Below, one piece after another: positions 1-46,690 of a DNA stretch of 64,000 nt. Source of the stretch: Schmidtea polychroa (taxonomy: Eukaryota); the NCBI GenBank assembly GCA_044892525.1, contig CM097886.1, forward strand, positions 158,968,001-159,032,000. The letters run 5' to 3'. The stretch's first letter is position 1, and each line of letters opens with the position of its first letter. The position numbers were made by a program, and so were the translations under genes. A model generated the notes under the pieces. It was not told the origin of the DNA, ran no database searches, and was given only the letters and a program-made list of their open reading frames with translations.

Positions 1-477
1 AAGGTAGCAAATTTAGCATACCGACCAAGATATATCTTGATTGGATTCAAAGAAGTAGATTCATCTTTCCAAAAAAATAACAACTTGTTTATTCAAAAGA
101 TTGGAGTTGATAATTTAAAAACAATCCAAATTCAATTAAATAGTTCTTATTATCCAATAAATAGAATGGAATTTAATATTGAAAATAATGAAAACATATT
201 CCCATATCTAAACTATATTGAAACATGTTATGATTTCAAAGTTGAACCGCAATTAAGTTTAGAAGATTTCAAAAATTTATATTCTATATTTTGTATAAAT
301 GTTTCAGACCAAGATGATCGCCTAGCCATAAATAATGTTGATGTTACACTTCATGTAACAAAGGATTCTAATTTTAAAGCTAAAGTATATACATTAATAT
401 TAGAAGAAAAGAAAATAGAAATGAAATTATATGGTGGAAAGATTTCAATAATCGAAAATGTTAGGGAAGATTCTTGA
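1..477 (+). CDS. Major capsid protein (Polinton PY / hexon-like double jelly-roll), C-terminal part; frame is open from base 1
   Basis: Frame +1 reads KVANLAYRPRYILIGFKE...IQLNSSYYP...LSLEDFKNLYSIFCINVSDQD...KVYTLILEEK, matching the Polinton MCP C-terminal pattern (P.Y.I..F; LN...YP; LS..EF...Y.LF..DLS.Q; Y.LI..E). Confidence 0.8.
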   Translation, partial: KVANLAYRPRYILIGFKEVDSSFQKNNNLFIQKIGVDNLKTIQIQLNSSYYPINRMEFNIENNENIFPYLNYIETCYDFKVEPQLSLEDFKNLYSIFCINVSDQDDRLAINNVDVTLHVTKDSNFKAKVYTLILEEKKIEMKLYGGKISIIENVREDS

Positions 478-506
478 TATAATCCCTGATATTTTAACAT
501 TTTAAA

Positions 507-1916
507 ATGTCTCTAAATAAATATTGGAGATGTGAAAGTTGTAATTGTCAAGTTACAAGACATCATAAAGCAAGTCATTTAAAAACTAAAAAACATACAG
601 GAGGTGATCTAATTCCACGAGCTGGAGGCGATTTGCAATCTTCAAAAACAACATCTTCAATATTAAAACCTTTTACTACAGAAAAATATCCAGGTGAAAG
701 ACATTTATTTAAACACAACTATACTGGACCAGGAACACGTCTAGATATTAGATTAGATGAAAATAATAATCCCAAACAAGGAGAAGAACCAATAAATAGA
801 ATTGATCAAGCAGCTTTAAAACATGACATTGCATACAATTCAACAAATCTTAGAGATAGACATGTTGCAGATGTGAATTTAATACATGATTTAAATAGTA
901 TCCAAAATCCATCAACCCAAGAAAAGATTCAAAGAGCTCTAGTTAAATTAGCAATGAAAGGTAAGATTTTCATAGGCTTAGGACACAGTCCGATCACCAT
1001 GGGTGCAAGACTTCCTAGGAAAGCAAAAGATGTTGCTTATAAAAAGATTATCGAACAAGCAGAGATTGAAAGATCCCTCGAGAGTACAGCCAAGACTAGT
1101 TTACAAACCCCAACAGAATCAGAAATAAAATATGCAAAGGAATTACACCATGAATTTAGAAAAAATAAAAAATATTTAAAAGTTCAAGTACATGAAAAAG
1201 ATCAAACATGGTCTGCAGATTTAGTCTTTATGCCCAAATCATCAGACCCTGAAAAATATAAAATAATTTTAACTGTAATAGATTTATATACAAGATTTGC
1301 TTTTGCAAGATGTTTAGAAAATAAAACAGGATATTCTATTACAGAAGCAATTGAAAATATATTTGAAGAAAATCAAAGAATCCCAAAATATTTATGGTGT
1401 GATAAAGGAACAGAATTTTATAACAAAGTTTTTACAAAGTTTTTAAATGAAAATGATATTAAATTATATTCAACAGAAAACGAAGGAAAAGCAGTCGTAG
1501 TTGAAAGATTAAATAGAACATTAAAAAATAAAATGTGGAAATATTTTACTGCTTTTGGAAAACAAAAATGGAACAATGAATTGTTACAAAAGATTGTAAA
1601 TGAATATAATAATGATGTACATAGTTCTATAAAATTAACACCTTTAAATGCTTCCATGAAGCCTGAAACCATTAAAGTGGTAAATATTGAAAATGATGTT
1701 ATTGAAAAACCAAAGTTTAAAATTGGTGACCGAGTAAGAATATTTAAATATAAAAATAAATTTGAAAAAGGATTCACAGCAAAATGGACAAATGAAATTT
1801 TTATTATAAATAAAATACATTATACAACTCCAATAACATATAGCATCTTTGATTTAAATAATGAAAAAATATTAGGTAGATTTTATAATAATGAACTACA
1901 GAAAACAGATTTTTAA
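507..1916 (+). CDS. Zn-finger + parvovirus-type phospholipase A2 + retroviral-like (rve) integrase fusion
   Basis: N-terminal CxxC..H..H; PLA2 Ca-loop HNYTGPGT and catalytic KHDIAY; integrase DDE in WSADL (codon 1218), WCDKGTEF (1401) and VVERLNRT (1503); C-terminal KFKIGDRVRI...FY..ELQK SH3-like region; no chromodomain. Confidence 0.93.
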   Translation: MSLNKYWRCESCNCQVTRHHKASHLKTKKHTGGDLIPRAGGDLQSSKTTSSILKPFTTEKYPGERHLFKHNYTGPGTRLDIRLDENNNPKQGEEPINRIDQAALKHDIAYNSTNLRDRHVADVNLIHDLNSIQNPSTQEKIQRALVKLAMKGKIFIGLGHSPITMGARLPRKAKDVAYKKIIEQAEIERSLESTAKTSLQTPTESEIKYAKELHHEFRKNKKYLKVQVHEKDQTWSADLVFMPKSSDPEKYKIILTVIDLYTRFAFARCLENKTGYSITEAIENIFEENQRIPKYLWCDKGTEFYNKVFTKFLNENDIKLYSTENEGKAVVVERLNRTLKNKMWKYFTAFGKQKWNNELLQKIVNEYNNDVHSSIKLTPLNASMKPETIKVVNIENDVIEKPKFKIGDRVRIFKYKNKFEKGFTAKWTNEIFIINKIHYTTPITYSIFDLNNEKILGRFYNNELQKTDF

Positions 1917-1927
1917 GTCGACAAGCC

Positions 1928-2734
1928 CTAAAACAAACTTTTCCATATTTCAGCTTCTTCTCTATCCAAATAAATATAATTATATTTTTCTTTCCAATGA
2001 TTATCAACAAACATATCAAACATATTCATATCAGGTTCAACATTTGAAAATAAATCATTATAAATCATATTCTTATCACGGCGATCTAATTTAAAAAATA
2101 TAAAACAATTGGAATTATTTCTTATTGAATTTTTATCTAAAGCATAATATGTTTGAGATATATAAATAACATTACAATTATTATGTCGACCTCGTGTAAA
2201 GTAACTCTTTTGAATCTCTTGATTTTTCATATTAACAACATCATCAAATATAACTAGATTCTTTTTATCTTTAGGAAGTAAATCACAATGTAAAACATCT
2301 TCAGGTTTATTAGAGAATAAAACTTGAATTGACTCCTGCCCTTCTTCACAAATATAATCATTTTTATTACTAATATCTGATTCTAAAATCTTTTCCTTAT
2401 ACCAATCAACCATATCACAAGGTTGAAAAACTTCTTCAGGACACCTATGTTGATTTTTAAAAATATCAATTATTGCTTTTTTAGTTAATTTATTTTCAAA
2501 TCCACATTTCAAAAGTTGTAATTCTGGTTGATTTATGGTTGTAGAATAAAAGATTAAATTATTATAATCTAAAAAATCATCTTCAAGTAACATTCTCAAA
2601 ACAAGTACATTCTTTCCACATCCAGAAGAACCAACAATTAATAATCTAAAATTATCAGGAAATACTTTATTATTAAATTTACTCTTATGTCTATTTAAAA
2701 TTGGTTTCCAAATTATTGGACTTCGTACATCCAT
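1928..2734 (-). CDS. A32/FtsK-like DNA packaging ATPase (likely start at 2734; ORF is open to 2773)
   Basis: Walker A GSSGCGKN, Walker B VIFDD, and the A32-type FTRGRHNNCNVIYISQ motif. Confidence 0.92.
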   Translation of the reverse strand: MDVRSPIIWKPILNRHKSKFNNKVFPDNFRLLIVGSSGCGKNVLVLRMLLEDDFLDYNNLIFYSTTINQPELQLLKCGFENKLTKKAIIDIFKNQHRCPEEVFQPCDMVDWYKEKILESDISNKNDYICEEGQESIQVLFSNKPEDVLHCDLLPKDKKNLVIFDDVVNMKNQEIQKSYFTRGRHNNCNVIYISQTYYALDKNSIRNNSNCFIFFKLDRRDKNMIYNDLFSNVEPDMNMFDMFVDNHWKEKYNYIYLDREEAEIWKSLF

Positions 2735-2749
2735 TTTATTTATTATAAA

Positions 2750-3343
2750 ATGACAACTGAAGAATCTTTGCAAGAATTAATAAATTCAAATAAAAATAAA
2801 TCAGTAGTAATTGATGGTAAAAAATATTTTATTGGAAAACATGTAAAAGAACAAGTTAGAGCGAAGCTCCACGAAGCTAAAGAAGGTGGCATTCTTCCAT
2901 TAGCAGCTTTAATACCTGCAATCATTGCTGGTTTATCAGGTGCTGCTGGAATAGCTGGAGGAATTGCAACTACAGTTCAAAAAGCTAAAGAATCTCAAAA
3001 GACAGACCTAGAAAAAGAAAAACTACAAACTGAAATCGATTCAATGAAGAAGGTAGGGCAAGCTAAAGGGGGAGTGTCCGTTGGAAAGGGTCTCTATCTT
3101 AATCCATATGAGGCGAGTCGGCAAAAGTCTCAGGGGACTCTGTCCAAGGGAAAGGGTCTCTATCTTGATCCTTATAAAGGTAGAGGTTTAAATGATTTTT
3201 TAAAAAATCAAATTTCTACATCTGAATCTTTATCTTCAAAAGATAAAGAAGATTTAAAAAAAATATGTAAATCTTTAAAGAATGGATGCCTTTGTAAAAC
3301 TGAAAATGGTAAAGGATTAAACTTGAAGCCCTTCGAACTATGA
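2750..3343 (+). CDS. Putative virion core / membrane-active precursor protein
   Basis: Hydrophobic GGILPLAALIPAIIAGLSGAAGIAGGIA segment followed by repeated GKGLYLxPY / GxGL motifs, as seen in Polinton small structural proteins. The function is inferred. Confidence 0.6.
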   Translation: MTTEESLQELINSNKNKSVVIDGKKYFIGKHVKEQVRAKLHEAKEGGILPLAALIPAIIAGLSGAAGIAGGIATTVQKAKESQKTDLEKEKLQTEIDSMKKVGQAKGGVSVGKGLYLNPYEASRQKSQGTLSKGKGLYLDPYKGRGLNDFLKNQISTSESLSSKDKEDLKKICKSLKNGCLCKTENGKGLNLKPFEL

Positions 3344-3365
3344 TACCATTTTTGATACCATTAAA

Positions 3366-4247
3366 ATGGTATATGAAGAAAGATTAGCACTTTTAAAAAA
3401 ATTACAATCAGAACAAGATAAATATAATAAAAAAGATACAACTCAACATGCTGAATCTATAATATTAAATGAGGTAATAACACAACAACAGGGGCCAACA
3501 ATTAAAGCTATAAAAGAGTTGGAAGATTTCAATGAGCAAGCAAAATTTAAAGAGTTAGAAGATAAAAAACAAAAAATAAAAGAACTAGAGTGGCAGGATA
3601 AAGAAAAAGAATCCAGTGAAAACCATCCTGAAAGAAATCAAAGAAAACGCAGAAGAATTTCTAATGTGGAAGAAGAAGAAATGTTTTTAAAAACAAAAGC
3701 TCTTAAAGTTGATCCTAAAATTAGAGATGATTTACCTCCTTCAATTAGACCCACATTTAATACTAATACTGAAGGATATCAAATAATAACAATTAATAAA
3801 CAAAACTTTACTTTATATTCAAATTCAGAAAATAAATCACGTATTCATTCACAAAATGTTTATAATAATGAATATTTAGACTTTGAATTTACAGATGATT
3901 TTTATAGATTACTTTGTGGATATTCTTCAGATGATGTTGAAGAAATTAAAAAATATTTAAATTTAATAAAATTAATAAGAGCTAGTTCTAAAGCAAAATA
4001 TATTCAAGATTTAAAGAATTATTTAAATAAAAATGAAAAGGGTTATGTTGTTACAGAGGGAGAGGGATTAATTAGTGAAGGTGGTAAACCAAATCCCATC
4101 AATCTTTTTATTGAATTAAGAAAACTATTAGCTGTAAGGAAAGCAGGACATAATAATTTAGATTCTGATATTTTAAAGATATCTAAAGATTTGTTAAAAC
4201 AAGGAATAATTTCAAAAGATAAATTTAATAAGTATACGAAGTTATAA
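3366..4247 (+). CDS. Polinton uncharacterised protein (coiled-coil N-terminus, basic NLS-like stretch)
   Basis: Intact 293-aa ORF with repeated IKELE, RKRRR, and a C-terminal L..L.A.RKAGHNN...I.KDLLKQGIIS motif recognised from Polinton ORFs. Confidence 0.6.
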   Translation: MVYEERLALLKKLQSEQDKYNKKDTTQHAESIILNEVITQQQGPTIKAIKELEDFNEQAKFKELEDKKQKIKELEWQDKEKESSENHPERNQRKRRRISNVEEEEMFLKTKALKVDPKIRDDLPPSIRPTFNTNTEGYQIITINKQNFTLYSNSENKSRIHSQNVYNNEYLDFEFTDDFYRLLCGYSSDDVEEIKKYLNLIKLIRASSKAKYIQDLKNYLNKNEKGYVVTEGEGLISEGGKPNPINLFIELRKLLAVRKAGHNNLDSDILKISKDLLKQGIISKDKFNKYTKL

Positions 4248-4269
4248 ATACGAAGTTTTAAAATACAAA

Positions 4270-4734
4270 ATGACTCCTTCAATATTAGATTTTTTAAAAA
4301 CATTTGGAATAAATGCAAAATCAAATTTTGATTTAAAAGATTATGCAAATTATTTAAATTTAAAAATTAAAATATTAATGAATGATGAATTATCAAGTCT
4401 GGAGAGTCCCCTGAATATAATAATCAATTATCAAAATTCAAATGAAAAAGGATCTCATTGGGTTTGTATATATAAGAAATCTATCTACTTTGATTCTTTT
4501 GGGATTAAACCTACTAAAGAAGTTGAAGATTATCTCTTGAGGGGTTCTCCGATTGATTCCCCAAATGGTTATACTTTTAACTCTTTACAAGTTCAACCTT
4601 TGAATACTAAAATATGTGGTATTTTAAGTTTATATGTTTTGTATAGATTGAATAAGGGAGAGGGAAAGGGGCATACGCAGGATTTTGAATCCATAATTCA
4701 AGAAATTTATAATGATCTAGAATCTCTACTATAA
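4270..4734 (+). CDS. Adenain-like (C5) cysteine protease
   Basis: GSHWVC (His), YFDSFG (Asp), QVQP (oxyanion Gln) and ICG (Cys) in the adenain order. Confidence 0.92.
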   Translation: MTPSILDFLKTFGINAKSNFDLKDYANYLNLKIKILMNDELSSLESPLNIIINYQNSNEKGSHWVCIYKKSIYFDSFGIKPTKEVEDYLLRGSPIDSPNGYTFNSLQVQPLNTKICGILSLYVLYRLNKGEGKGHTQDFESIIQEIYNDLESLL

Positions 4735-4782
4735 GGATTTTTACTATAAGGATTTTTACTATATGAATTTACTACTAAAGAA

Positions 4783-5547
4783 ATGGAGCTTCACAACCCT
4801 CCGGAAGATAATTTAAAAAAAATGGTAAACATAATGTCAGATAAATATTCAAGAACTTTATCTATAAATTCAAAAGAATCAGAGTTTACTATAAACTTTC
4901 AAGATTCAATTAAATTAGATCAAAATTTAAATTATGAATTGGGGCTATTATGGTTTTGTGCTTATAATACTATTTTTAATATAACTAAAGATAATAATAA
5001 ATTTACTATTCAAACTCGTGATGGGCATAAACCAGAAATTATAACAATAGAACCTGGGGCATATGAGATAAAAGATTTAAATGATATACTTTCTAAAAAA
5101 ACAAATGAAGGTATTAAAATTAAAATGGATATACCAACTTCAAAATCTGTAATGACTTTGAAGAATATAAAAATTAGTTTTTTAGATAATTGTTTCTTTC
5201 ACACAGTTTTAGGATTTAAACCCATGGATATAACAATAAAAGAAGATAAAATAATAACATCAGAACATATTATAAAAATAATAAATACAAACACAATAAA
5301 TATTCATTGCGATTGTATAACAGGTTCTTATAATAATGGTAAACAAACAAATGTTTTATATTCCTTTCCCTCAAACACAGTTCCTATGGGATATAAAATA
5401 GTTGAAAGAATGAATCCTCCAAATTATTTACCTTTATGTAGAAAATATATAATGGATATTAATTTTAAAATTCTTAATCAAGAAGGAGAATTGATTGATT
5501 TTAATGGAGAAGAGATTTCAATGTATTTACATTTGAAACAGGTTTGA
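4783..5547 (+). CDS. Minor capsid protein (penton, single jelly-roll)
   Basis: NTIFNI..NNKF, I.IEPGAYEIKDLN, VLGF, INIHCDCITGSY.NG....VLYSFP, Y.PL, I.NQEG.LIDF.GE motifs typical of Polinton minor capsid proteins. Confidence 0.85.
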   Translation: MELHNPPEDNLKKMVNIMSDKYSRTLSINSKESEFTINFQDSIKLDQNLNYELGLLWFCAYNTIFNITKDNNKFTIQTRDGHKPEIITIEPGAYEIKDLNDILSKKTNEGIKIKMDIPTSKSVMTLKNIKISFLDNCFFHTVLGFKPMDITIKEDKIITSEHIIKIINTNTINIHCDCITGSYNNGKQTNVLYSFPSNTVPMGYKIVERMNPPNYLPLCRKYIMDINFKILNQEGELIDFNGEEISMYLHLKQV

Positions 5548-5571
5548 AGATTCATTTTAAATTATTAATAA

Positions 5572-6582
5572 ATGAGTTCTTATATTCCATGTAATAGAGG
5601 TGGTGGAACAATAAAAACAGGGTTTAATACAGAAGAAATATTAACTTTAACAGAAAATAAATATATTAATGAAAGAGGTGATTCAATGAAGGGAGATTTA
5701 AATTTAAATGGACACAAGATAAAAGAATTATCTTTTCCAACTGATGAAGCTGATGCAGTTAATAAGAAATATGTAGATGGTGTTAAAAAATATACTGATT
5801 TAACAACAACAAGAATTGAAAGTTCATTAACAACAAAAATTGATTCAATGGAATCAAAGCTTAATAATATCGAACAACGATTTAATGATAAATTTGACAA
5901 GTTACAAAGTCTGTTAACTGAACAAGTTGTAAAGTTAAATACTGCTATATTAAATTCTAAAGATAAACAAATTATGAATACTAAATTTAATACAATATAT
6001 AAAATAATAAATGAGATGATTACATCATTTAATAAAAGAATTTCAAATTTAGAGTCTCATGAAACACACATTAACACCACACATAGTATTAGAAAAAGAG
6101 CTGCTGAATTAGAACAGAATAAAACATTATTACCCCATACATATAAACATTTTATAGAACCAAGTTTAATAACAACAAACAGTAAAGAATGGGGTGTTTT
6201 TATGGTTGTAAAAATTATTGATCCTTATTTCTTTTTGTTTGATGATGATAATGAAAGAATGAAATGGTTTGTGAAATGTGATTATAATAGTAAGCTTGAA
6301 AAGGGTGATGTTATAATGACTAGTTATGATTTACCACACGGAGATTGGTATGTTAATACTCATTCACATGGACTACATAAAGTTAAAAGTAAGAATATTC
6401 ATTTTTCTAGTTCACTTGTACAATATATAGATTTAATATTTTATGAAAAAAAGGTTGATGTTGATGAAGTTCGTAAAGCATTGAGAGAATTGTATAAAGA
6501 TATCCTCTCAACAAGAGTTTCTTTTGATATCCGAGTATTGGTGCCAGATGGTGCTCAGAAGAATAAAGTCTTATTTTTTTAA
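5572..6582 (+). CDS. Putative fibre/spike-like structural protein
   Basis: MKGDLNLNGHKIKELSFPTDEADAVNKKYVD motif, of the kind seen in phage tail-fibre and Polinton proteins, then a heptad-like coiled-coil region and a globular C-terminus. Confidence 0.55.
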   Translation: MSSYIPCNRGGGTIKTGFNTEEILTLTENKYINERGDSMKGDLNLNGHKIKELSFPTDEADAVNKKYVDGVKKYTDLTTTRIESSLTTKIDSMESKLNNIEQRFNDKFDKLQSLLTEQVVKLNTAILNSKDKQIMNTKFNTIYKIINEMITSFNKRISNLESHETHINTTHSIRKRAAELEQNKTLLPHTYKHFIEPSLITTNSKEWGVFMVVKIIDPYFFLFDDDNERMKWFVKCDYNSKLEKGDVIMTSYDLPHGDWYVNTHSHGLHKVKSKNIHFSSSLVQYIDLIFYEKKVDVDEVRKALRELYKDILSTRVSFDIRVLVPDGAQKNKVLFF

Positions 6583-6590
6583 TTATTAAA

Positions 6591-7187
6591 ATGGAAGAAG
6601 TAAGAGAAGAAAAAATTTACCCAGAATTGAGATCATCAGGATATTATTCTTCCAAGGCCTCGGCTCCCACAGAACTTGAAATTATGAGAGTAAAAGAATT
6701 TAAATCAGAAACCTTACATTTACAAGATTTATTAAAGCATTATAAAAAAATTAAAAATAGATGGAATAAAGGGAATACAGTTTTAAAGGTTATAGGTTAT
6801 TCTTTAGGATTTGCATCTGCAATATTAACAGTTATTTTACCCATAACTTTACCAGTTGTTACTCTTGCACCTGTAATACTTGGAAGTATTTCTGTGGCTG
6901 ATGGTTTCTTAACTGAAATAGTTTCATTATCTTATACTTCTAAAAAGAAAAGTTTATATAGAGAAGTTTGTTTATCAATAGAATTAGGAATCTCTAAATT
7001 ATTTTTATTTCAATTAAAAGCTTTGGAAGATGGAATCCTGACAGACGAAGAAATAATGAAATCAAATCAAATAATACAAGATATAAAGAATGAGGTTATA
7101 AGATTAAAAAGGGAGGGCATGGTGGCTAATGTTATAAGTAATAAAAAAACATCTCGAGAAAAATGGTTAAAGAATTCTTACTTATAA
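6591..7187 (+). CDS. Polinton putative membrane protein with paired hydrophobic helices
   Basis: IYPEL...ASAP N-terminus, basic KHYKKIK stretch and a long hydrophobic segment VIGYSLGFASAILTVILPITLPVVTLAPVILGSISV. Confidence 0.6.
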   Translation: MEEVREEKIYPELRSSGYYSSKASAPTELEIMRVKEFKSETLHLQDLLKHYKKIKNRWNKGNTVLKVIGYSLGFASAILTVILPITLPVVTLAPVILGSISVADGFLTEIVSLSYTSKKKSLYREVCLSIELGISKLFLFQLKALEDGILTDEEIMKSNQIIQDIKNEVIRLKREGMVANVISNKKTSREKWLKNSYL

Positions 7188-7281
7188 AATGGGTGTATTT
7201 TTAAAAACGTAGATCAGGTTGCTATAGTTGCTTAAATTAATTGTCGACATTTTATTATTAAAAAATTAAATATCGTTGGTT

Positions 7282-10200
7282 TCAGTTATGGTTGAAAGCC
7301 AACCTATGAATCATTAATTTATGATCTTTAAATTCTTTATCACTTAGACCTTTTATATATTCAGGATCAGTATTAAAATATTTAAGTTCTAAACATATAG
7401 GATTAAAAACTTGAGAATATAAAGGTTTCTCGATTTCTCTCTCGGGATAAATGATTTCAACATTATAAATATCAAGATCAGTAATCTTTGTATCATATAA
7501 CTTATTCAACTTTTCTAGATTTTTTATTATAGGGATTAAATTATTTCCAATAGGTAGAGTTGTCTTTAAATCACTTAGTATGAATCTCTTATCATCATAA
7601 TTTGATAATGATACTTTTTGAGATTCTATCAAGTGAATATCATGGTTTTCACTTTTAAGTTGATGTATTTCATCAATTTTATCTTTATGATTTGGATTCA
7701 ATGTATCTATATAATCTTGATGAGAAAGATTCTTTGCCACCACTCTCTGTATTCCTTTACATCTGTTATCCTTTACAGGTTTTTCTTCTTTAGGAAATAT
7801 AGGATATCTATGTGTAATGGTTTCTTCTGTTTCTGGAGTTTTAAATATAAATGATCTAGTTATAAATTCAGGGTTTCTAAATGTTTCGTATGAATATTGT
7901 TTAGCACGAATAAATATTCCATTTTCTATAGGAGTAAAAGGTTTTTCATCTTTAAACGAAAATAGTTCTCCAGATGAATTTATTAAATTTGAAAGTATAG
8001 GATTTTCTTTCATATCTTTTTGTAAATCATGAGTTCTTATTGTTAAAAACATTGAATCTGTATCCATTGCATGCATTGATATATTTGCTCCGTATATAGG
8101 TTGTAAGATGTTATAATATGTTTCATACATTTGTAATTTTGAAAGTTCTAAAATTGTAAACCCTATAAATATTGGTTTGTTATATGTTTTCTCATAATTT
8201 TTTAATTCTACTGCAGTAAGATTTTCAGAAAATACTTGTGCGTTTTTAAATGTAGGCTTTCCTAGCATGCGATTATAACGCTTAATATCTTTGGTAGTAT
8301 TTGTTAGGAGTTCAATATGAGTATATTTATCAACATTCTCCATTGTTTTCCCAAAGACTGAATTGTTTAAAATTTTATAATTATTATCTTTAAAAAGATT
8401 ACCTTCTCTTTTTGCAATGTTTCGGCACCTAATGTTCTCCTCGATAAAAGCTTTCATGAATGGAGCTTGTTTAAATCTTATGACACTATGAACTTTTTTT
8501 AATATCATTCCTCGTGAGAGATAAAATTGGAGGAGTCTATAGTGACAAAGATAAAACCTTCGATCTGTTTGATCACAAAGAAGTTTCATTGTTGGAGGTT
8601 TATCTTGTGAGATTTGCCATTCAGAAAGTTCGTTGATATCAATCTTTCTTCTTATGGGAGCTAAAGGAAAATATCTTGTTCCTGATTTTATATCATCTGG
8701 ATAGTCGAGGTCGCATTCTATAAAGTAACCTATTGGAGAATCTTTCGATGTTGAAAGTATTTCTTTCATAAGGTCATCTGTTGGGTTCTCTATTTCAGTG
8801 AAATCACCCATTGGTAAAAATTGAGTCATAATTCCTGAATATAAAGCTGTTGCATCTATATAAAGTATAAATATAGGATTTTTCATTGTTTCTAATAATT
8901 CTTTTAATTCCTCATTGTTAATTTTCATATATGGATCATCAGGGTGTTTAGATAGTCTTCGGCTAGTAGTTATTGCATTTCTAGCTTTTATTTCTCTATT
9001 CCCCATTACTGAAGAGACTCCTCCTCTAATGTTTGTTTTAATTTGGTTAAACATATCGAGGTTAGTTAAATGATCTATAATTTTATCACCTTCTTCTATA
9101 TTTGAAGTCCAAATGGTATATAACATAGTATCCCAAGCTAAAGAGGGTGCAGTTATATAATTATAAGGTTTAAGAACAAAAGATTTTGTAAATTCTTCAA
9201 AGCAATCTGCTAGAATATAAACATCCAAGGATAAATACATACTTGTATATTCTCCTAAAGTTTTACACTTGAATAATTCCCACATTTTATTTGCTCGAGA
9301 ATATTCTTGATTTGTAATATGATTTTTTTGAAGTTGTGAATAGAAATCTTCTTGGCTAGGAAGACTTGTTTCATTATATCTTTCAAACGAGTCAACATAG
9401 TCATAAGGATATATTCCTTTTGCTAAACATGTAGGATATTCTTCTAGAGGAATATTATTTTTTTCCAAGAATTCTCGAGTGATTTTAAAATTTTCTGGTT
9501 TCATTGTTTTTGCTACTGCATCTAAAGACATTTGGAGAAAGTTTAACGAGTCTATAAATTTTAATTTTCCATATTCAATTGATTTATATTTTTCCTTTGT
9601 TAAGCCGATAACTTTGAAAGAGTTTTTAGCATTTGCTGCGAGGTGTTTAATAAATAGATGTATGTCATATCCAAAAAGATTATGAAATATAACAGGTATA
9701 AATTTAGGAGTATGGCAATTAAGATTGCAATTTTTATGAGCTGCTCCTCGATAATTATTTTCCTTTTTTAAATGATCATGATCTATAACTTTTTCATCAG
9801 GAAGAATATTCTGTTTACACATCCAACAGTTGGAAGTATTTTCATATTCTTGTTGTTGTTGATTAGAAATATTTTGAGGATACTTTGTTTTTAATATTTT
9901 AAATATTTCATGTTCTAGATCATTTATATTTTTAGTAAAATGATTCAAGACTTCTTCAGGGGTACCTCCTAGAATTGAATATTCTCTAGATTCTATGAGT
10001 TCAGGATAATTACTTTTAAATAATAATTTATAAGCAGATGGTAATTGTTTAGTTTTTTTAACACTATTAGGTTTATTTCTTTTTCTTAGAAAGGCTTTCA
10101 TCCTCTCTGGTTTCATCTTCTCTCCTGAGGAGTTCCAGGAATCCATGAGTTTATTTTTTTCTATTATTTTTAAATATTGATAAACCAAATCTTGTTTATG

Positions 10201-11602
10201 GTTTATAGATTCAAAGTCACCATAAAGAACTCCAACTGTTTGTAGTAAATTTGAAAAGTTTTTAAAATACATCTTGGGATTATTAGGCATTTTAATTAAA
10301 GCTGGATCATCTTTTTCACAAAATCTTGTATGTTTAATCATAGAGTTTTTAGTTGTTGAATAATGAAGACATCTTTTACATGTTCCTCCTCCACTAGTTG
10401 GATTCTCTGGAGATGTAAAAGCTTGAAAGTTTTTTTATTAAAACATAATGTTGATTATTTTGTTGTTCCAAGATTAAAAGATATATCTCGTTGTCCTGTG
10501 CTCCGTTATCCTTGGTTCCACTATCTGAAATATAAATTGGAATAATTTCTTTCCCTATAACATGTTCATAAATATTAAGTTTAAGATTATTTAATTTTTC
10601 AAATTCTGGAATGTCTTCTAGTTTCATTGGGTGTTTGAATCCTTTGGGAAATATTAATTCATTTTCATATTGTTTGTATTTTGAAACTCTTTGGGGATTT
10701 GTTGCTTGAGGATGTAAATGTGCAAGTATTGACCAGATGAAACATTTGTTATCATTATTCTGTACATTTATAACATTTTTAGATTTAAAGGGTGTAGGAA
10801 TATAAGATTTAGGATTGGGTGGTAATCCTCTCCAATAATCAATCACTAAAGTTTGGAAAGAGTTGAATACTAAGTTTGAATCTCCTAATTCATTTTCTAC
10901 TTCCTCTTGTTTTGCTTCTGCTGCTTTAATTATTTCTTTGATGGTTTTATCAAATCCTTTAATTGAAAATAAATATTTAAAAGGTATTCCAATTTCAACA
11001 TCTAAGGGTGTTGTCTTTTCTTCTGCTCCTCGCCAGTATTTTGCTTTGATTATAATTTTATATTTTATAACATTATACCTTGTCGGTTTATAATTTTTTA
11101 AAGCTTCAGTGAAAGAATTTTTAATATTTTTTTTATTTTTATTTATATATTCTCCAGGAGTTGCAGGCCCATTAATTTTTAATTGAAATTCATCTATATG
11201 ATTAAAATTATCCCAGTTATATTTTTCTCTTTCAACATGATCAGGCTCTCCTTCTGAATGACATTCCTCATCGTCAGAATTTTGTTTTTTATTTTTACAT
11301 TCTTTTATATGTTCTAAATAATAGAAATTTAGTTTTGTTGAAAAGTTACAATGAGGACATGTAAATATTTCTCTATTTTTCCCGATACAATTTTCAAAAT
11401 GTTTATTATATCCAGAATGTAGAAATCTTCCTTTACATTTAAGACAAAGTTTTGAATTTGTATCATTAAGATTATTTTCTTTTAATAAATGAGCTTTCGA
11501 TTTTAAGTGAGAAATTAATCCAGTTTTATTTTTAAAAACTTTATTGCAAATATTACAATTCATTTTTAGAAAAAAATTTTTTATTGGATACCCTGTTTTC
11601 AT
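7282..11602 (-). CDS. Protein-primed DNA polymerase B (pPolB), split by a single +1 frameshift near 10417-10436
   Basis: Exo I GDFES, Exo II FHNLFGYD, Exo III YLSLDV; polymerase motifs YIDATALY, KILNNSVFGK, MDTDS. ORF 10394-11602 carries the pPolB N-terminal SYIPTP...INVQNNDNKCFIWSILAHLHP...HYVLIK block. The downstream frame continues ...GTCKRCLHYSTTKNSMIKHTRFC. Confidence 0.93.
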
Positions 11603-11669
11603 TTTATTTTTTAAGATTTATATTATTCATTTTTTATAATAAAAATTTAAAAAATGACAAAAAACCCAA

Positions 11670-11752
11670 ACCTTGATGGCGCAGTGGGCTAGACTGACAC
11701 AGTGGTTCAAAATGCTAGCGGTTCAAATCACATCTGAGGTTAGTTTTTTTTT
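11670..11752 (+). ncRNA. tRNA-like (tRNA-Trp-resembling) Pol III small RNA gene, copy 1
   Basis: A-box TGGCGCAGTGG 11677-11687, B-box GGTTCAAATC 11720-11729, 72-nt body with acceptor-like stem ACCTTG/TGAGGT, T9 terminator 11744-11752. D- and T-stems do not pair, so it is not a canonical tRNA. Confidence 0.7.
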
Positions 11753-11904
11753 CAACATAAAAAATAATATTAAAAATTTGAAAATAATATTGAAAATAGT
11801 GTGGGTATCTTATATTTATAAAGTACTTGTATATTTTATTTTATTTATTTTATTTTATTTTATTTTTTTATAAATTAAAAATTTAAAAAATGACAAAAAT
11901 TCAA

Positions 11905-11987
11905 ACCTTGATGGCGCAGTGGGAATAGACCGGCACCGTGGTTCAAATGGATAGCGGTTCAAATCACATCTGAGGTTATTTTTTTTT
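11905..11987 (+). ncRNA. tRNA-like (tRNA-Trp-resembling) Pol III small RNA gene, copy 2
   Basis: A-box 11912-11922, B-box 11956-11965, 73-nt body, T9 terminator 11979-11987. Confidence 0.7.
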
Positions 11988-12151
11988 CAACATAAAATAA
12001 TATTAAAAATTTGAAAATAATATTGAAAATAGTGTGGGTATCTTATATTTATAAAGTACTTGTATATTTTATTTTATTTATTTTATTTTATTTTATTTTT
12101 TTATTAATTTAATTATTTTTTAAACATAAATATGAAAAAAAAAATATTGAA

Positions 12152-12523
12152 ACGGGTGATGGTGGCGAACCGGTAATTATCGCCACCTGTCTTTCGAACA
12201 CCCCCGGATCGATTCTTTAATGTGCACATTTATTTCTCAGTTGTTTTCGGACCTCTTTCGAATTCGCTTTCGAATTCATTTGTACTTTCGAGCAGCACAC
12301 TTAAAACGCCGATGAAATCGTATTCGAGCGAGAAGCGAATAATAAGGTGTGCTGCTATTATCGGATTGATTCTGATGTATGAGTCTGGCCAGCTTGTATA
12401 TTGGAAGAGATTCGATAAACGAAAGAGGTTGATAAATAAAAAAAATGATCCGGATCAAAAAAAACTGTTGAGGGGACAGTGAAAAAAAAAAAAAAAATAC
12501 CACTGTCCCCTCAGAGCAGTTTT
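12152..12523. other. GC-rich nested inverted-repeat (hairpin-forming) region, probably within the Polinton TIR
   Basis: Perfect complementary pairs: 12161-12168/12180-12187, 12204-12210/12447-12453, 12251-12260/12420-12429, 12291-12300/12347-12356, 12321-12326/12336-12341 and 12469-12481/12501-12513. Also a 12-bp palindrome at 12219-12230. Confidence 0.85.
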
Positions 12524-12807
12524 ACTATTTTTCATTTATTTTTTAATTTATATAATTTAAAATCAATAATCTGATAAAGATCAAATAGCCCTCTAACTTT
12601 TTCATAATGCCATTTTCTTTTCTATTCTCTTTTTAGTTTGAAGCTTTTGAGTTTGAGGCTTTAAAGATTAAAACAGTTAGAGTCATTAAGGGTGGTTGTT
12701 TTCAAAATATAGGGTTAAAATACTATAAAAGTATAAGTTTTAGGTTGTTTTTCTAATAGCTTAAGTGATTTGGAGGCATGTTTTTGTTGGGGGGCTGTTT
12801 TGGTTGG

Positions 12808-12831
12808 GTATATAACCACACTACTTTCGTG
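12808..12831. repeat. Polinton right terminus (...GTATATAACCACACTACT, ends 12825) and probable 6-bp TSD TTCGTG (12826-12831)
   Basis: AGTAGT terminus on the minus strand; flanking sequence matches the uninterrupted repeat GCC(G/A)AAAATTCGTGAGTATC seen at 39.8 kb and 50.65 kb. The left TSD copy cannot be seen in this window. Confidence 0.8.
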
Positions 12832-12945
12832 AGTATCAACAAATATCGATAAATTACTGATTTATAGTCTTCAAACTTTTTTTTTAATAAATTGAATGGA
12901 AAAAATAGTCAGTAGTGAAATTCAAAGAAATAAAATATAATTTTA
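12826..12945 (+). repeat. Penelope-like element pLTR/3' fragment interrupted by the Polinton
   Basis: TTCGTGAGTATCAAC...ACTGATTTATAGTCTTCAAAC...CAGTAGTGAAATT aligns with 50658-50765 (+) and 39712-39783 (-). Confidence 0.8.
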
Positions 12946-39704: not shown

Positions 39705-40843
39705 AATTTTTATTGAATTTATTGAAAAGAGAGTTTGAAGATTATAAATCAGTAATATATCGATGTTTTTTGATACTCACGAATTTTTGGCACTGCCTTT
39801 TTCAAGTGGATTTGATCATTATCGCATTTACCAATTATTGCTGGCGAAAAATAAATTTATTTCATATTTTATAATAAATTTATTGGTTTAATTATATTTT
39901 AATTATTTAAATAATATTTCCTATTTTTTATATTTTATTTTATAAAAAATCATCTTAAATTTTATATATTTTAATTTGAATCCAAATTTAAATAAATGTC
40001 TCAGGGATTTTTTTAATTTAGTTGAATGTTGATAAACGGTTTAAGTTTTTTGATACAAAGAGTCTCTGCGGCTAATCTTTGCAATTTATTTTTGAACGCA
40101 TCATGTAATATTTTGCACTTTTTTTCGTGTATGAGTGGTGCTGATTTGTGCACTTTTTTCCAGTGTTCGTGATAATGGTTGGTTTTGTTTTTTTGTTCGT
40201 TGAGTCTTTTTTGGAACGTTCTGTGTTTCGCCTATGTACGATGCGTCACATCTTGTGCAAGTAATTTGGTATACAATGTTTTTTGAGAAGCAAAAACATT
40301 TGGTGGAGGATTGGCATATACAATCTCGATGAAATATGTCAGGTACTAGAGATTTTTGAGACTTACGAAGCTGTGATTTCAAAGGTGCAGCGGTTGTGAA
40401 AATTGGGCGAATATGAACTGGCAACTCCATATTGCGAATGTAAGCTCTGATTATATTACATGTCATATTGTTTAAAAAAGGGTATATTACTGGCTTATTG
40501 ACATGTTCCCTTTGTGTATTATGCCTATTAGAGTTATATTCACTCAAGAAATATTTTTTCTACGAACTCCTTTGGGTATCCATTTTGTAAAAACCGTGTT
40601 TTAAAGTTTTCTAGGGTTTCTTGTGTTTTCGTTTTGTCCGAACAGTTCCGTATTGCTCTTTTTCTCTCCTACTAATAGAGCGATTTTTGTTTGGAGTGGA
40701 ACGTGACTTTCCTAAGGAAGAATGTGCCCACTGTGCAGACTTTTAGTGAATAAATCTGTCTTGAACGTGAGAGTGTTTGGACCTTCAGAAGAACTTATCA
40801 TTATTATTTATTATTTAGTGGTATTTGAATTAAATCATAAAAA
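39705..40843 (-). mobile_element. Penelope-like element, 5'-truncated (RT thumb + GIY-YIG + pLTR), copy A
   Basis: FLQNGYPKEFVE thumb; NIVYQITCTRCDASYIGET GIY-YIG; frameshifted; inverted near-identical partner at 49548-50775. Confidence 0.88.
39776..39810 (-). ncRNA. Minimal hammerhead ribozyme variant in PLE pLTR (G12A, probably inactive)
   Basis: Minus strand: TCCAC TTGAAAA A GGC AGT GCC AAA AATT C GTGAG. Confidence 0.55.
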
Positions 40844-40872
40844 GTATTTTTCTACGAACTCCTTTGGGTATC

Positions 40873-41691
40873 TGTGGTGAATGTATTAAGCAAATCTGGT
40901 TTCCTTGCTTTTATAGAATTAGATGATGAAGTCATGAAGTCACAAATATTTATAGAATCACAAAATATACGAGGAAACATTTTATTATTTTTAAATTACA
41001 ACTTTCTTAAAATATAAATTCGAAAACTCCCAATTTACTTGAAAAAGTAAAACAAACATGATTTGATTTAATATCCATAAATAAAAATGATTTATTTATT
41101 ATAACTCAAAAAAATACGATATTCCTTGATTAACAAAAAAATGTATTTAATTGTTCACTACTAATCATAAAAAGTAACAATTAATTATCAAGCTTCCAAT
41201 TTATTCAGATATCCCAATCAAATTATTTGTCCGTTATTTCTTGGATCCATAATTGATTTGTGTAGTGGTTGGATAACAAATATATTCGGGTTCATATTAT
41301 TGTTAGGATTTTTTACATATTTCGCGAATTATAATGGATGAAGATGTTGGTCTATGAGAGCCAACACTAAAACTATTAGGGGCCGAATACAGTTAATCTT
41401 GATAATAATAACATGGCATCGAATTTGCTTTACTCGTCTAAGATTGATTAATAGAGCCTGTTTGATAAGTAGAAGTATTAGCTGATTGCATGAATTTTGA
41501 TCGACTCTTGGAATGAGATAGAGTAGACTGCGATGTTCCAGCTAATGTGCAATTATAGGTGATATTTGATTGGCCATAATTGTGTTCTGATTGATCCTTA
41601 TTCGCTAATGATCGCCCATTTATATATAATATAATATAATATAATATAATATAATATAATATTTATATAGATTTTGTTAAGGCTCACTACA
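40873..41691. mobile_element. 819-bp TG...CA insertion (solo LTR or Ginger-like MITE)
   Basis: TGTGGTGA...TCACTACA termini, perfect 5-bp TSD GTATC (40868-40872 and 41692-41696); it splits a short PLE fragment (40846-40872 + 41692-41755) and contains a (TATAA)n run. Confidence 0.8.
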
Positions 41692-42449
41692 GTATCCATT
41701 TTTTAAAAACCGTGTTTTAAAGTTTTCAAGCGTTTCTTTATTTTCGTTTAAAATTTAATTAAAAGATTTTACAAAAAAATAAAGTTAATTAAAGTTAAAT
41801 CACTAACACTCCATGAACGTAAAAGTTTAATCAAGAGTTCAGAACTAAGATCAGAATTTTTACAATTACTATATAAATACAAAATCTAAATTTTGCTGTT
41901 CATTCACTTTTTTTGTTGATAAAGAATAATTCATTACATTTTCTAATTATGGTTTACTATACACTGATTTTGTTATTAGAAAATATTTAGAAACTTCAAC
42001 TTTTTAAGTGGGTTACAATTTGCCATCTGTCCGTTATTTATTTCATAAAATTGAATTATTTAGCTTTTTGATGCCAACACCTGTTCTAATATATTATGGA
42101 TTATTTTTATCTTACATAAAAACGACATATATTATAAACTGAAGTTTTTCAATTAGGGTTCCACGAATGAAATAGTTATGAATAGGATAACTATAGGAAG
42201 TTATTTTGTGTGTGAATGCTGTAGTGCCTCCGACATTCCAATTAATAAATATATTAATTTATTTAAGTTACAAATCCATTATTAAATTAGGCAAATTAAA
42301 TCACGTTGTTTAACCCTTAAATTCATGATTTTTCCAAATTCAAAAATAAAAATATTTTTAAAATATCAATATCACATCTATTAAAATAATTTGAAAACAC
42401 AATGACTCGGTGTTTTGTTACACTTACTTAACACTGTGCATTTGAGTTC

Positions 42450-43620
42450 CTTTATTGCATGTATATTGATTTATAAGCACCTAAATAAAGGTTTTCATCC
42501 GACGCTGGAATGTCACATCGGATGTTCTTGGCCAAACATTCAGTCAACCTCAAGAGTTATTCCCATCTGCATTTACCACAACCTCTTCGCGTTACATGCA
42601 CAAAAATGCATTACAGGCTGTACTTTTATGATTCGTCACTCAAACAAATCACAATACGACAAAAACTACTCCAATTCCCCCCAAAAACTAACTTCGCTTT
42701 CTGTGAACCATTGACCTTCAGGCAGCGTCTTTACGATCAACAATTATTTTCGATTCCAGCTCATCAATTCACTTCCTCGTCGATTCCGGGTCATCATTTT
42801 CGATCCTTCAAAATTTAACTCCCTCCTCTGTCTTGGCTGCCAATGGTACACAGATTCAATTTCTGGGAACAAAAAAAATGCCATTCACGATACCGGCACT
42901 GAAATCAACTTTCACTCACACCTTCCACATAGCAGGCACGATTCATCCAATACTAGACTCAGACTTCCTCTGGAAACAATCCCTCGTGGTAAACTGTAAA
43001 AATCGATGACTATTCACTATAAATCTGCACCTCCATCCTACACCTACAAATATATCATCAACGCAAACATTTCTAGCGACAAAATTCAGCTCTATCCAAT
43101 CTACTTTCACGATGGAACACAATTAACACATGTTGAATGTTGAGCATTCAGCTAATCCGGAGCCAATGCACGACATGATCAAAATAATCTCAACAACATA
43201 ATCAAACCCTCTTACAAAATCCGTTACCATACCACCTACAACCCTGTTGACAAATTATATCCTTCACCATGAACGTAACCAATATACGTAGCCACGCGGC
43301 GACTTCCGTCAACTCAATCAAGTGACTATTCGCAACACATACCCAACTTATCAAAGATCTAATAACATGCTTTTCACAATCCACCATATTCTCAACTATA
43401 GACATCTCGAAAGCATATCACCAGTTTCCCATCTACATCTATGATGTTCCCAAAACCTTTGGCACCACATCATTTAGAAATTTCGAATACATGTTCATGC
43501 CTTTTGGCCTCAGAAACGTAGTTAAGTCCTTACAACGTTTTATGGATATCATTTTTCGTGACGTTCCCCAAACTTTTGTATCCCATGATGATATAATCAT
43601 AGGCCGTTACATCCACACTA
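42450..43620 (+). pseudogene. Ty3/Gypsy pol remnant (protease-RT region)
   Basis: GDFRQLNQVTIRNTYP, FSTIDISKAYHQFPI, MPFGLRN..KSLQRFMD and FVSHDDII (decayed YxDD); higher GC than flanks. Confidence 0.85.
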
Positions 43621-45439
43621 TTTGGGTATCCAAATGTGGAGGCTACCTACTACACAAAGTGAACTGACACACTAAACTCCCAATCACCATTTCCCACTGG
43701 CTCTTTTCATCGATCTCATAATTTTTGGCCGCTGCCATTGTCAGGTGTATTCAGCTGAGAATTAAATATTTCAATGATTTATTAAGATTAAATGATAAAT
43801 AATTGACTATTAAAATAACTTTTAGAAAAATTTTTAAATTGAAATTTTAAAGTTGAAAAATTAAACAAGCTTTTTAAATAAAGTTTTATTAGTAAATAAT
43901 TTTTAAATAAATATATTTTAAATATCAAAATTTTAATAAATGGCTTTGAAAATATTTTATTCAACGCTGAAAATTTATTTGAAAATTATACAATATTTCA
44001 TTAAATAAATACTTGGAATTATGACGTTAACTTTTGAACCGGATTTAAAAAATAAATTAGAAGATGAGTTAGCAGCTTCTAATAGCCATATTTCCTTAAT
44101 CTTCAGCATGTTCGATAATTTCCATTTTCCCCAGGGCCTATTGGTTAAAATAATTTTCGTTAACGGAATCTTTTCAAAAGTGAATAATATTCATGGCGAT
44201 GTTTTTTAAATTATATTCCAATTAACTCAAAAGTTTAATTGATTTTTGATTGATCATACTTGGACACACTATATCCGAATTTAGACGGAAAGTTTAAAGA
44301 AAAATTTTAAAGTTGGGGTACGGGCTATATAACTTAAAAAGAAAGATTTTAAATATATTGAATTTTAAGGGTGACGGCTATATACAGAAATTTAGGGTTA
44401 GTTTGTATTACTTAAATATTGGTATTGATGTTAAAGTTTGGAATTGTAATTAGTTAACATTTGCTTATAGATGAAGTTTTTATTTGCTTTGGAATATTTT
44501 AGAAATAAAATTGACGCATAAATTTCTAATTAAAATTTTGTTAAAATGATCNNNNNNNNNNNNNNNNNNNNNNNNNNNNNNNNNNNNNNNNNNNNNNNNN
44601 NNNNNNNNNNNNNNNNNNNNNNNNNNNNNNNNNNNNNNNNNNNNNNNNNNNNNNNNNNNNNNNNNNNNNNNNNNNNNNNNNNNNNNNNNNNNNNNNNNNN
44701 NNNNNNNNNNNNNNNNNNNNNNNNNNNNNNNNNNNNNNNNNNNNNNNNNTTGAATAAACACCTGTTGTATATAATTGCGTTTCATTGTGAAAGTGATTAT
44801 TGATTACCTTATAGTATGAGAAGAAAACACTTTTTGGGTTATAATTATTCATCTAGAAATACAATTTTTGAATTTTTTAATGATTCCAAATACATTGTAT
44901 TAAAATAACCATTTCAATATTTTGCGCCACTTGCCACGCTCCATAAGTTTGAAATTCGTCATATTTTAATAACTGAATCGCGACTAAAACTTTCACAATT
45001 GATTTTTGAACGCCCATGAAAATATAGCAATAAAAATATTCTTATAAGTCTTTGTGGTACACATTTAAGAAAAACTGAATTAAATTAAAAAATTTTCCGA
45101 TCCCCAGAAATTTGAATGTAAAAGTTTTAGCTGTAAAATACACCCATTCTTCAATTTACACGGAAGATAGGTTCCATGACAAATAGTGTAAATTAAAACT
45201 GTGTAAAAATGACACAGAATACATATAAAACAGTGAATCTTTGAACCCTGTAAATTTATTCAACGAATAAAAAGAAAATTCATAGATACGTTCATAATAA
45301 CCTTATAATACGAATCAAGTATTTAATGAAGAAAATGGACATTGGTTCTTAGTAAATTGATATAATAAAAATATAAAATAATAATATTCGATTCGAAATA
45401 AAGAAACAAATTAAAAAAAACAAATTAAAGATATACATC

Positions 45440-45900
45440 AATTAACTATATTCCGCAAATAAAATATATAAAAAGCATTATTCTTCGCAAGAGCTTTCAA
45501 AACCTGGGATTCATTTTTCCTTTGGTTGTAATATAATATCATTATCATAGTTGGTAATAAAAATTTCATTGTCTTTATTGTCTTTACGACTTCACGAGTT
45601 TGTTGCGCATCTTTTTAAATGTCTTCATATTGACTAAGAGTAATTTTTATTATTCATCGAAATTTCAAGGCTCTTTCGGTACTAAATTCTGTTTAAAAAA
45701 TCTATTTGCAATTCTTTACTTGGTCAAAGCCTTTCAGAAATTATATTTATGGTAAATCTTTCTACCACATTGCTGATGTCAGAACAGATTTTCCTAATGT
45801 CATCGGGCTCCGGATTTACCAAATGAACTACATCAGCAATTTCAGTATCCTCCAAAAACTCTTCTATGTCACGAATAACAAAAGCATTGATTCCTTTACA
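45440..45900 (-). pseudogene. Possible piggyBac transposase N-terminal remnant
   Basis: EFLEDTEIADVVHLVNPEPDD resembles the acidic ..DI...PPEPD N-terminus; no catalytic motifs seen. Confidence 0.25.
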
Positions 45901-46525
45901 TCCAGTAGAATACACTAGGTATATTACATCGGCATGTACATTTTCGGTGGACAAAACTACATTTTTTTTGAAACATACTTAAAACAAATTTTTTTTTAAT
46001 TCAAAAACCGTATAAATCGGGAGATGGATGTACTTAATTGTGGATTATTATAAATATTGACTGAAATATTGACCCATTTTCTTGTACATGATGTCCTATG
46101 GAATTTCGTTTAATGTTAAACTCGTGGTGTAAATATTTATAATATTCGCTGTATAATGATAAAAAAAATCTTTTGCTAGTCCATCTGATAATTTTAGAAT
46201 GTTATTTTTAGTTCGAATACATTACAATTTTATATGAAAACAAAATGCATTAATATTATTCGAATAATAATTCATTATTGGCCAATTGCGAACATTTGCA
46301 TTTAATAATCAACATTTTTTTCTTTATTTTCCATGACAATGAATCAAAAATTTGTATGGAAACTTTAATTTTTTACTCAGTTGTCAGCCGAAAAAAAAGA
46401 GTGTAAATCTAACATTTCTTCGATCAGAATAACGAAAAATATTTTATTAATGACTTAAATAAATATTATTTATTTATTTTGAATTAAATGAAATCACTAT
46501 GGCAATAAATTTAATGAATATTCAG

Positions 46526-46690
46526 CTATAGAAGAACTTGAGAAAGTTAAAATGAATATGAAGCAATCAGTGGCGATATTTTCCTCCAGACTTGTCAGGC
46601 AGTTAAAGCGTAGAGACCATGCATTAGCAAAAATGCAGAAGAATTGCGATATATTAACGGCAATTCTACAAGCTTCGTCCTTGAAAAGAA
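46526..46690 (+). CDS. TBC1D30: TBC1D30 coding exon 2 (165 nt, phase 1-1; missed by the ORF track)
   Basis: IEELEKVKMNMKQSVAIFSSRLVRQLKRRDHALAKMQKNCDILTAILQASSLKR matches the recalled human ..SAKLLRHLKQKDRLLHKVQRNCDIVTACLQAVSQKR; TTCAG acceptor, GTAAAT donor; splicing to 56711 gives KRREDTKLKF. Confidence 0.9.

Follow-up and report, generated by a model that had tools for sequence, protein, structure and literature searches.

Polintons are described by their proteins, and their long terminal inverted repeats (TIRs) are treated as replication and integration ends. [quoted passage not shown] Helenus, Ajax, and Cassandra (TRIMp3; Kojima 2024, PMC10886601) are short non-autonomous LTR retrotransposons whose promoter can drive the RNA that serves transposition. 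In our case, by contrast, the carrier is an autonomous DNA element with PolB, integrase, and inverted repeats, rather than a non-autonomous LTR retroelement with PBS and PPT. Since the present units face outward and have their own terminator, they cannot transcribe the element. The main text of the TRIMp3 paper (PMC10886601) does not contain the word "Polinton".

Two viral systems are also similar. The adenovirus VA RNAI and VA RNAII (PMC7589676) likewise belong to the type-2 Pol III genes; they combine an A box and a B box with a U-run, in a PolB/jelly-roll virus lineage, and the same source notes that a tRNA origin has been hypothesized for them too. VA RNAs are ~160 nt long, have a stable apical stem and a central domain, with a Dicer-cleaved terminal stem, and occur once or twice per genome (PMC7589676). 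Our units, unlike VA RNAs, are 72 to 73 nt long, unstructured, located in TIRs, and variable in number. The MHV68 TMERs (PMC4337559) comprise several uncharged tRNA-like Pol III units near the end of a viral genome, with hairpins downstream. Their vtRNAs are similar to each other in both sequence and structure and are transcribed together with the pre-miRNA hairpins (PMC4337559). In contrast, the cloverleaf is lost in the present units and, judging from the sequence, a T9 run after the unit and further T runs stand between it and the hairpins, unlike a leader co-transcribed with them.

In S. pombe, B boxes or tRNA genes in inverted repeats (IR-L/IR-R and cen1 tDNA) flank a 15- to 20-kb domain (PMC7474672, PMC2040200), an arrangement much like the one described here. 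For those boundaries, which are host loci, both TFIIIC binding and the effect have been measured, whereas our candidate boundaries belong to a mobile element. Finally, tRNA-related genes also occur in relatives of Polintons, the polinton-like viruses and virophages (PMC12220804). The tRNAs reported there are canonical, are found by Rfam and ARAGORN, and are read as codon compensation, whereas the present units are called by neither tool and lie in TIRs.

A literature search, with subscription journals and Repbase outside its range, found no paper that describes degenerate tRNA-like Pol III units, or structured RNAs, in the TIRs of Polintons. The adintovirus paper (PMC8502044), in its available text, does not mention VA RNA, and it names tRNA nowhere but in the legend of a figure that concerns other viruses. 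The degenerate Pol III units in Polinton TIRs appear to be new, against a background of Pol III modules elsewhere and canonical tRNAs in polinton-like viruses; the supplementary ncRNA tables of PMC12220804 may bear on this point. If TIRs carry Pol III cassettes and structured noncoding RNA, Polintons would possess a layer of regulation comparable to the one in adenoviruses and herpesviruses. It could be the means by which a large DNA element deals with insertion at random chromatin sites and with RNA silencing by the host. The question is directly testable, since natural copies run to thousands in one genome that also contains sister families, some with the cassette and others lacking it.

The window, by which we mean the whole 64,000-nt stretch analyzed, contains at positions 1 to 12825 the right part of a 15,299-bp Polinton, with the element end at 12825. 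Domains above Pfam cut-offs are PF03175 (protein-primed PolB), PF00665 (rve integrase), and PF04665 (packaging ATPase), which is the protein set of Polinton/Maverick (adintovirus) elements. The ends agree with this assignment: like other Polintons, the element has long TIRs, AG...CT termini, a 6-bp target-site duplication, and a length within 14 to 40 kb. The Polinton host proposed by the sequence-only reading is thus borne out by PolB, the rve integrase, the A32 ATPase, the TIRs, and the duplication. On the + strand lie the C-terminal part of a putative double-jelly-roll major capsid gene (1 to 477; PF21738, E = 0.003, a weak match below the Pfam cut-off to the C-terminal piece of the gene only) and an rve integrase with an N-terminal PLA2-like domain (PF08398; 507 to 1916). 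On the − strand, Pfam matches identify the A32-type packaging ATPase (1928 to 2734) and the PolB open reading frame (ORF; 7282 to 10341), and a zinc-finger ORF, recognized from the reading frame and a domain search, stands in front of PolB (10394 to 11602). These last two are separate ORFs here (with 10341 to 10394 between them), while many siblings have a single frame of 1444 to 1449 codons around the PolB match.

The TIR is ~0.94 kb long. Its right copy, delimited by pairing of the ends, occupies 11884 to 12825, the portion that pairs with the left TIR of the same copy (locus L031, 7527 to 8460). An identical 6-mer flanks the element on both sides: the target-site duplication at 12826 to 12831 (+ strand) recurs directly before the left end. 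A second element, with inverted arms of ~1.1 kb, lies at 39708 to 50733. The flanks of the Polinton are also inverted copies of each other, because its insertion site (12826 to 12909) is inside sequence related to the ends of that second element. The exact Polinton terminus has 942 matches in the genome, a count that misses variant termini. PolB is 98 to 100% identical among the best 131 matches in the genome, which indicates a young family with little time for loss of units.

Two type-A tRNA-like units lie on the + strand at this end of the element. Unit 1 (11670 to 11741) has its A box at 11677 to 11687, an inner B-box-like repeat at 11704, and its B box at 11720 to 11729; a T9 run resembling a Pol III terminator follows at 11744 to 11752. 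Unit 2 (11905 to 11977) has its A box at 11912 to 11922, its B box at 11956 to 11965, and a T9 terminator-like run at 11979 to 11987. The distance from T8 (11677 and 11912) to G53 (11721 and 11957) is 44 nt in unit 1 and 45 nt in unit 2, identical in all four host tRNA types measured. An A box and a B box spaced as in tRNA, followed by a T-run terminator, make up the layout of a type-2 Pol III gene. Our rereading of the coordinates agrees with the sequence-only reading on the unit length of 72 to 73 nt, on the A box at tRNA position 8 with the B box at tRNA spacing, and on the T9 run 1 to 2 nt past the discriminator behind both units. That reading had taken the units for a pair of tandem genes. 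We find instead that they belong to two tandem copies, 90% identical, of a ~235-bp repeat on the + strand (11597 to 12112; unit plus AT-rich spacer) that is present one to three times per TIR.

A generic A-box/B-box pattern matches the genome 12,100 times (host tRNA arrays included) versus 5 times for the reversed control, and the chance expectation is ~1e-4 per element. A chance origin of the unit signals is excluded. An A/B-box-like sequence of another sort was seen at locus L135 (745 to 830), in DNA flanking a Polinton fragment; it is possibly a host SINE head.

The units nevertheless fall short of tRNA. ARAGORN calls no tRNA gene in the window, and Rfam gives no tRNA match at E ≤ 5 for the unit region, with weak sub-threshold matches only, so that these searches, of the kind suggested by the sequence-only reading, yielded no tRNA at the units. 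The 73-nt units fold no better than shuffled sequences (z = +0.62 and −0.67). The claim of an acceptor stem with 6 of 7 pairs, two of them G-U, stands for unit 1, and 6 pairs form in 53 of the 80 sibling rows; the stem is down to 3 or 4 pairs in 22 of the 80. The T-stem is broken, as had been proposed: in 79 of the 80 rows, just 2 of its 5 pairs form. A functional tRNA gene is therefore rejected: there is no ARAGORN or Rfam call, the T-stem keeps 2 of 5 pairs, and a cloverleaf does not form.

The units are tRNA-derived in layout and have kept the Pol III signals while losing the cloverleaf. Which tRNA they came from is less clear. Unit 1 and host tRNA-Trp share 49 identical of 77 columns, with a score of 52.5 against 32 to 36.5 for the other isotypes (four compared), so the proposed resemblance to tRNA-Trp holds for that unit. 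The left-end type-A variant scores higher with Lys (41) than with Trp (39) among the same number of host isotypes, and for this reason a tRNA-Trp origin is not established and the ancestry stays tentative for type A as a whole. Because annotation of the tRNAscan, ARAGORN, or Rfam type misses such units, they may be overlooked elsewhere.

Type-A units are numerous and stay with the element. The type-A core has 2,867 exact matches in the genome, versus none for the reversed control. We inspected 60 loci. One set of 30 includes the window as L001, and the other consists of the first 30 among the 2,867 pattern matches (two of which overlap). All 60 lie in the ends of this element. At none of the 60 did we see a free copy or a SINE body, and the flanks are the same as in element ends. 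Dispersed free copies with a body, a tail, and their own target-site duplication, the marks of a tRNA-derived SINE, are thus missing from the inspected loci, and a SINE or host tRNA pseudogene is rejected. The proposal that the units have no SINE body and do not occur genome-wide independently of Polintons holds for these 60 loci, and so does the expectation that sibling elements keep the same unit in their ends. At every locus inspected, the feature is real and confined to the element.

Position and orientation are also constrained. At 28 of the first 36 exact termini, a unit lies within 1.6 kb inward of the terminus on the outward strand (opposite strand, 0), and a matching unit is absent at the other 8. 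Among 55 TIRs, 35 have one unit, 16 have two, and 4 have three, and the ~235-bp repeat is located at the inner edge of the TIR. The unit is thus an integral part of the TIR, variable in number, rather than a SINE or a pair like VA I/II. The left TIR of the window's copy, which the sequence-only reading had singled out for checking, does contain one type-A unit. Units of types B and C lie further inward at that end, outside the TIR (L031, 8858 to 9134, − strand), and all of these units face outward. Types A, B, and C at the left end have boxes, spacing, T-run, and outward orientation in common, and little else. Type B is nearest to host tRNA-Cys among four isotypes (48 of 75 columns) and has an intact, clean T-arm hairpin. 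Types B, C, D, and F have a common short motif 30 to 50 nt behind the terminator. Type D is ~80% identical to type B, including the flanks; it has 20 copies in all, at C1 145883 to 168328 (L132 to L134) and C1 32560, mostly in a single tandem array (~1,245 bp) close to where C1 begins. We read type D as an old relic of type B, rather than as part of the adjacent palindromic Polinton family.

To compare conservation within units, we used 80 unit rows; L003, L019, L040, and one truncated unit were dropped, and one locus was counted twice (L038/L134). Variants present in at least three rows occur in 1 of 11 A-box columns, none of 10 B-box columns, 19 of 53 leader and body columns, and 12 of 88 columns of the downstream spacer. 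Because the A box and some of the middle are set by our search patterns, A-box conservation is partly built in, and the B box provides the only fair test. Of the free body columns (those not fixed by the patterns), 15 of 37 are variable, compared with 0 of 10 in the B box (P = 0.019) and 12 of 88 in the spacer (P = 0.002), P values that are optimistic because the copies are related and recombining and neither rows nor columns are independent. The comparison of body with flank gives P = 0.06 when far-upstream columns are counted in; these were left out because they are a mixture of different contexts. RNAalifold on 19 of the 31 distinct variants gives a weak consensus of −5.5 kcal/mol, without a cloverleaf and with no compensatory pair. 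Conserved boxes around a fast-changing body are the pattern expected of a transcribed promoter without RNA-level constraint. Transcribed tRNA loci mutate at 7 to 10 times the genome average (PMC6130373), and the fast change of the body may similarly reflect transcription-associated mutagenesis.

The TIR holds a second candidate feature. A strongly folded segment of ~370 nt (12150 to 12525, + strand) begins ~160 nt behind unit 2 on the same strand and closes with a hairpin and T runs. An A-box match (12163 to 12173) is followed by an imperfect B-like motif lacking the first G (12192) and by a single internal T4 (12244), which could alternatively end an RNA of ~95 nt. Positions 12140 to 12535 fold at −137 kcal/mol (z = −8.6; minus strand, z = −5.8). 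Within the segment, on the + strand, are a long G-U-rich hairpin of about 25 pairs (12358 to 12418), resembling a pre-miRNA or dsRNA, and a terminal hairpin with an A-tract loop (12461 to 12523), in which a G-C pair has changed to A-U in 16 of 39 aligned copies. These 39 are the window and 38 of 48 distinct full-length copies, with 10 mostly near-identical ones excluded. Pairing is kept by 8 of 10 common variants versus 4 of 27 rare ones (P = 4e-4, among related copies), where the structure came from the window sequence alone and 3 of the 10 common cases fall in the poorly aligned A tract. Compensatory change is found at two pairs, and the remaining changes go through G-U; together these suggest an RNA on the + strand. 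In Rfam, no family matches the segment above threshold, with weak sub-threshold matches only.

Contigs from presumed-RNA runs (without a DNA control) cover parts of this region. X9 covers type-A units and the folded segment, and the contigs of X18 and X19, from a second organism, lie chiefly on the folded segment. No contig covers type C, and X20 contributes only AT-rich pieces of ~40 nt. The deepest bins fall at the folded segment (L032 5140 to 5499, about window 12140 to 12500). Contig depth is uninformative on parts, strand, and ends, and we therefore use it for neither reading of the units. Within the element, the ~370-nt segment is the strongest candidate for an RNA gene, and it is a better VA- or EBER-like candidate than the 73-nt units. 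It is closer in kind to VA RNA than they are, but has no Rfam match.

We tentatively favor, at somewhat less than even confidence, the reading that the units are type-2 Pol III promoter cassettes fixed in both TIRs and acting mainly as DNA, by setting a chromatin boundary or open zone. TFIIIC, TFIIIB, and Pol III would dock at the units at both element ends, and the docked complex would fix the boundary or open zone wherever the element lands. It would thereby shield the element, and the neighboring putative ~370-nt hairpin RNA gene, from the chromatin of the new insertion site, with the short RNA mostly a by-product. TFIIIC binding and transcription of the units are here predicted, in line with a body that varies faster than the spacer. 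The effect might keep the element either open or silent. In the fission-yeast IR-L/IR-R repeats, B boxes are bound by TFIIIC and silencing is favored inside the domain (PMC7474672), a precedent by which the direction of the effect could go either way. Chromatin barriers formed by tDNAs in fission yeast work in either orientation (PMC2040200). All four unit types are outward-facing and have kept their terminator, unlike those orientation-free barriers, which suggests that transcription itself matters.

Outward orientation in every unit type would also suit the alternative that the short RNAs are the functional product. Uncharged and tRNA-like, they would titrate La, enzymes of tRNA processing, or Argonaute/PIWI, and the fast body change would be an escape from host small RNAs. 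The intact terminator 1 to 2 nt past the discriminator, the tRNA-like length, an acceptor stem with 6 of 7 pairs in 53 of the 80 rows, the clean T-arm hairpin of type B, and the number of templates (at least 2,867) are consistent with this. A tRNA-like RNA can be functional, since an MHV68 vtRNA alone has an effect in vivo (PMC4337559). We nonetheless judge this alternative unlikely. The units fold like their shuffles and have no conserved structure or compensatory change, their acceptor stem decays to 3 or 4 pairs in 22 of 80 rows, T5 to T6 runs interrupt type F (described below), and the units lack a long duplex, such as the ~160-nt VA RNAs have, for binding of the Dicer or PKR type (PMC7589676). 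The more specific proposal of the sequence-only reading, VA-RNA analogues that are possibly anti-RNAi decoys, is unsupported where VA-like dsRNA decoys are meant: there is no stable or conserved duplex, the body is the fastest-changing part, copies number one to three, and T5 to T6 runs lie inside type F. With no common B-box variant, a body more variable than the spacer, and no conserved fold, the 73-nt RNAs are poor VA-like decoys. No Rfam VA match was found for them and their z scores are about 0, so that the VA analogy is misplaced for the units; it may hold for the adjacent ~370-nt segment.

Other Polinton families of the genome differ in whether they carry a unit. In a subfamily that carries TBP, and whose PolB (27 to 28% identity) and integrase (~37%) are distant from those of the window, we examined seven elements. 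Six of them have an outward unit of A box, B box, and T-run, which we call type F (L191, 1600 to 1690; further loci L209 to L212, L215, and L220). It is present in both TIRs of the single element with both ends seen. Between its boxes are T5 to T6 runs. Host tRNA-Trp and tRNA-Cys genes have no more than a T4 behind them, which makes a full-length type-F RNA improbable. The type-F TIR contains no strongly folded segment. No such unit was seen in other TBP-family elements (E2, E3, E5, the rearranged E4, and L221 to L223). A/B-box units are also missing from a palindromic Polinton family, represented by two complete copies. This last family (L183 to L188) is palindromic over nearly its whole length and has arms of ~6 kb with a PolB in each. 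The cassette is thus not a requirement for every Polinton of this genome; it is common to two distant families, yet patchy. A sister family with a 62%-identical ATPase was sought in the genome, and matches were only at the level of the window's own family. Among the viral_contigs, no relative was found by PolB, ATPase alignment, or DNA pattern. No unit was seen at 47 metagenome ATPase loci (28 to 49% identity), most of which span 1 to 5 kb without ends and are hence uninformative.

This patchy presence could mean that the units are neutral passengers, that is, tRNA or SINE heads that a TIR captured once and that were then spread to both ends by TIR homogenization, tandemly duplicated, and left to decay. 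A copy number varying from one to three, a degenerate body, and a young family with little time for loss fit such a history. Against it, the B box has no common variant while adjacent body columns vary, four unit types in two distant families keep the boxes, terminator spacing, and outward orientation, and no SINE body or free copy appears at any of the 60 loci. We regard passengers as distinctly improbable.

Least probable of all is a role as upstream promoter helpers of the ~370-nt hairpin RNA or as leaders of a TMER-like read-through transcript: the last unit does lie ~160 nt upstream on the same strand, the folded segment does have a good A box with a B-like motif missing its first G, and TMERs do join a tRNA-like leader to hairpins (PMC4337559), but T9 and several T4 to T7 runs intervene, the type-F family has the unit and no comparable folded segment in its TIR, and at one left end (E2) the folded segment occurs without type A.

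The boundary reading, in which the units act as DNA, can also be extended to both features. The TIR would then be a Pol III end cassette, in which TFIIIC units insulate every new insertion and, in the family that has expanded most, the outward-facing ~370-nt RNA serves as a decoy for Dicer or a dsRNA sensor, or as a miRNA source, aiding expansion. We consider this combination possible but somewhat doubtful. If true, the ~370-nt RNA with its G-U-rich hairpin of ~25 bp would be the Polinton counterpart of adenovirus VA RNA. The element would encode an anti-silencing system of its own, which would help explain its expansion to more than a thousand copies.

The host tRNA genes used for comparison lie in very large tandem arrays. 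The tRNA-Trp pattern has 851 matches, with a period of 284 bp in the first 100, and the tRNA-Cys array has a period of 281 bp; Lys and Arg arrays are also present.
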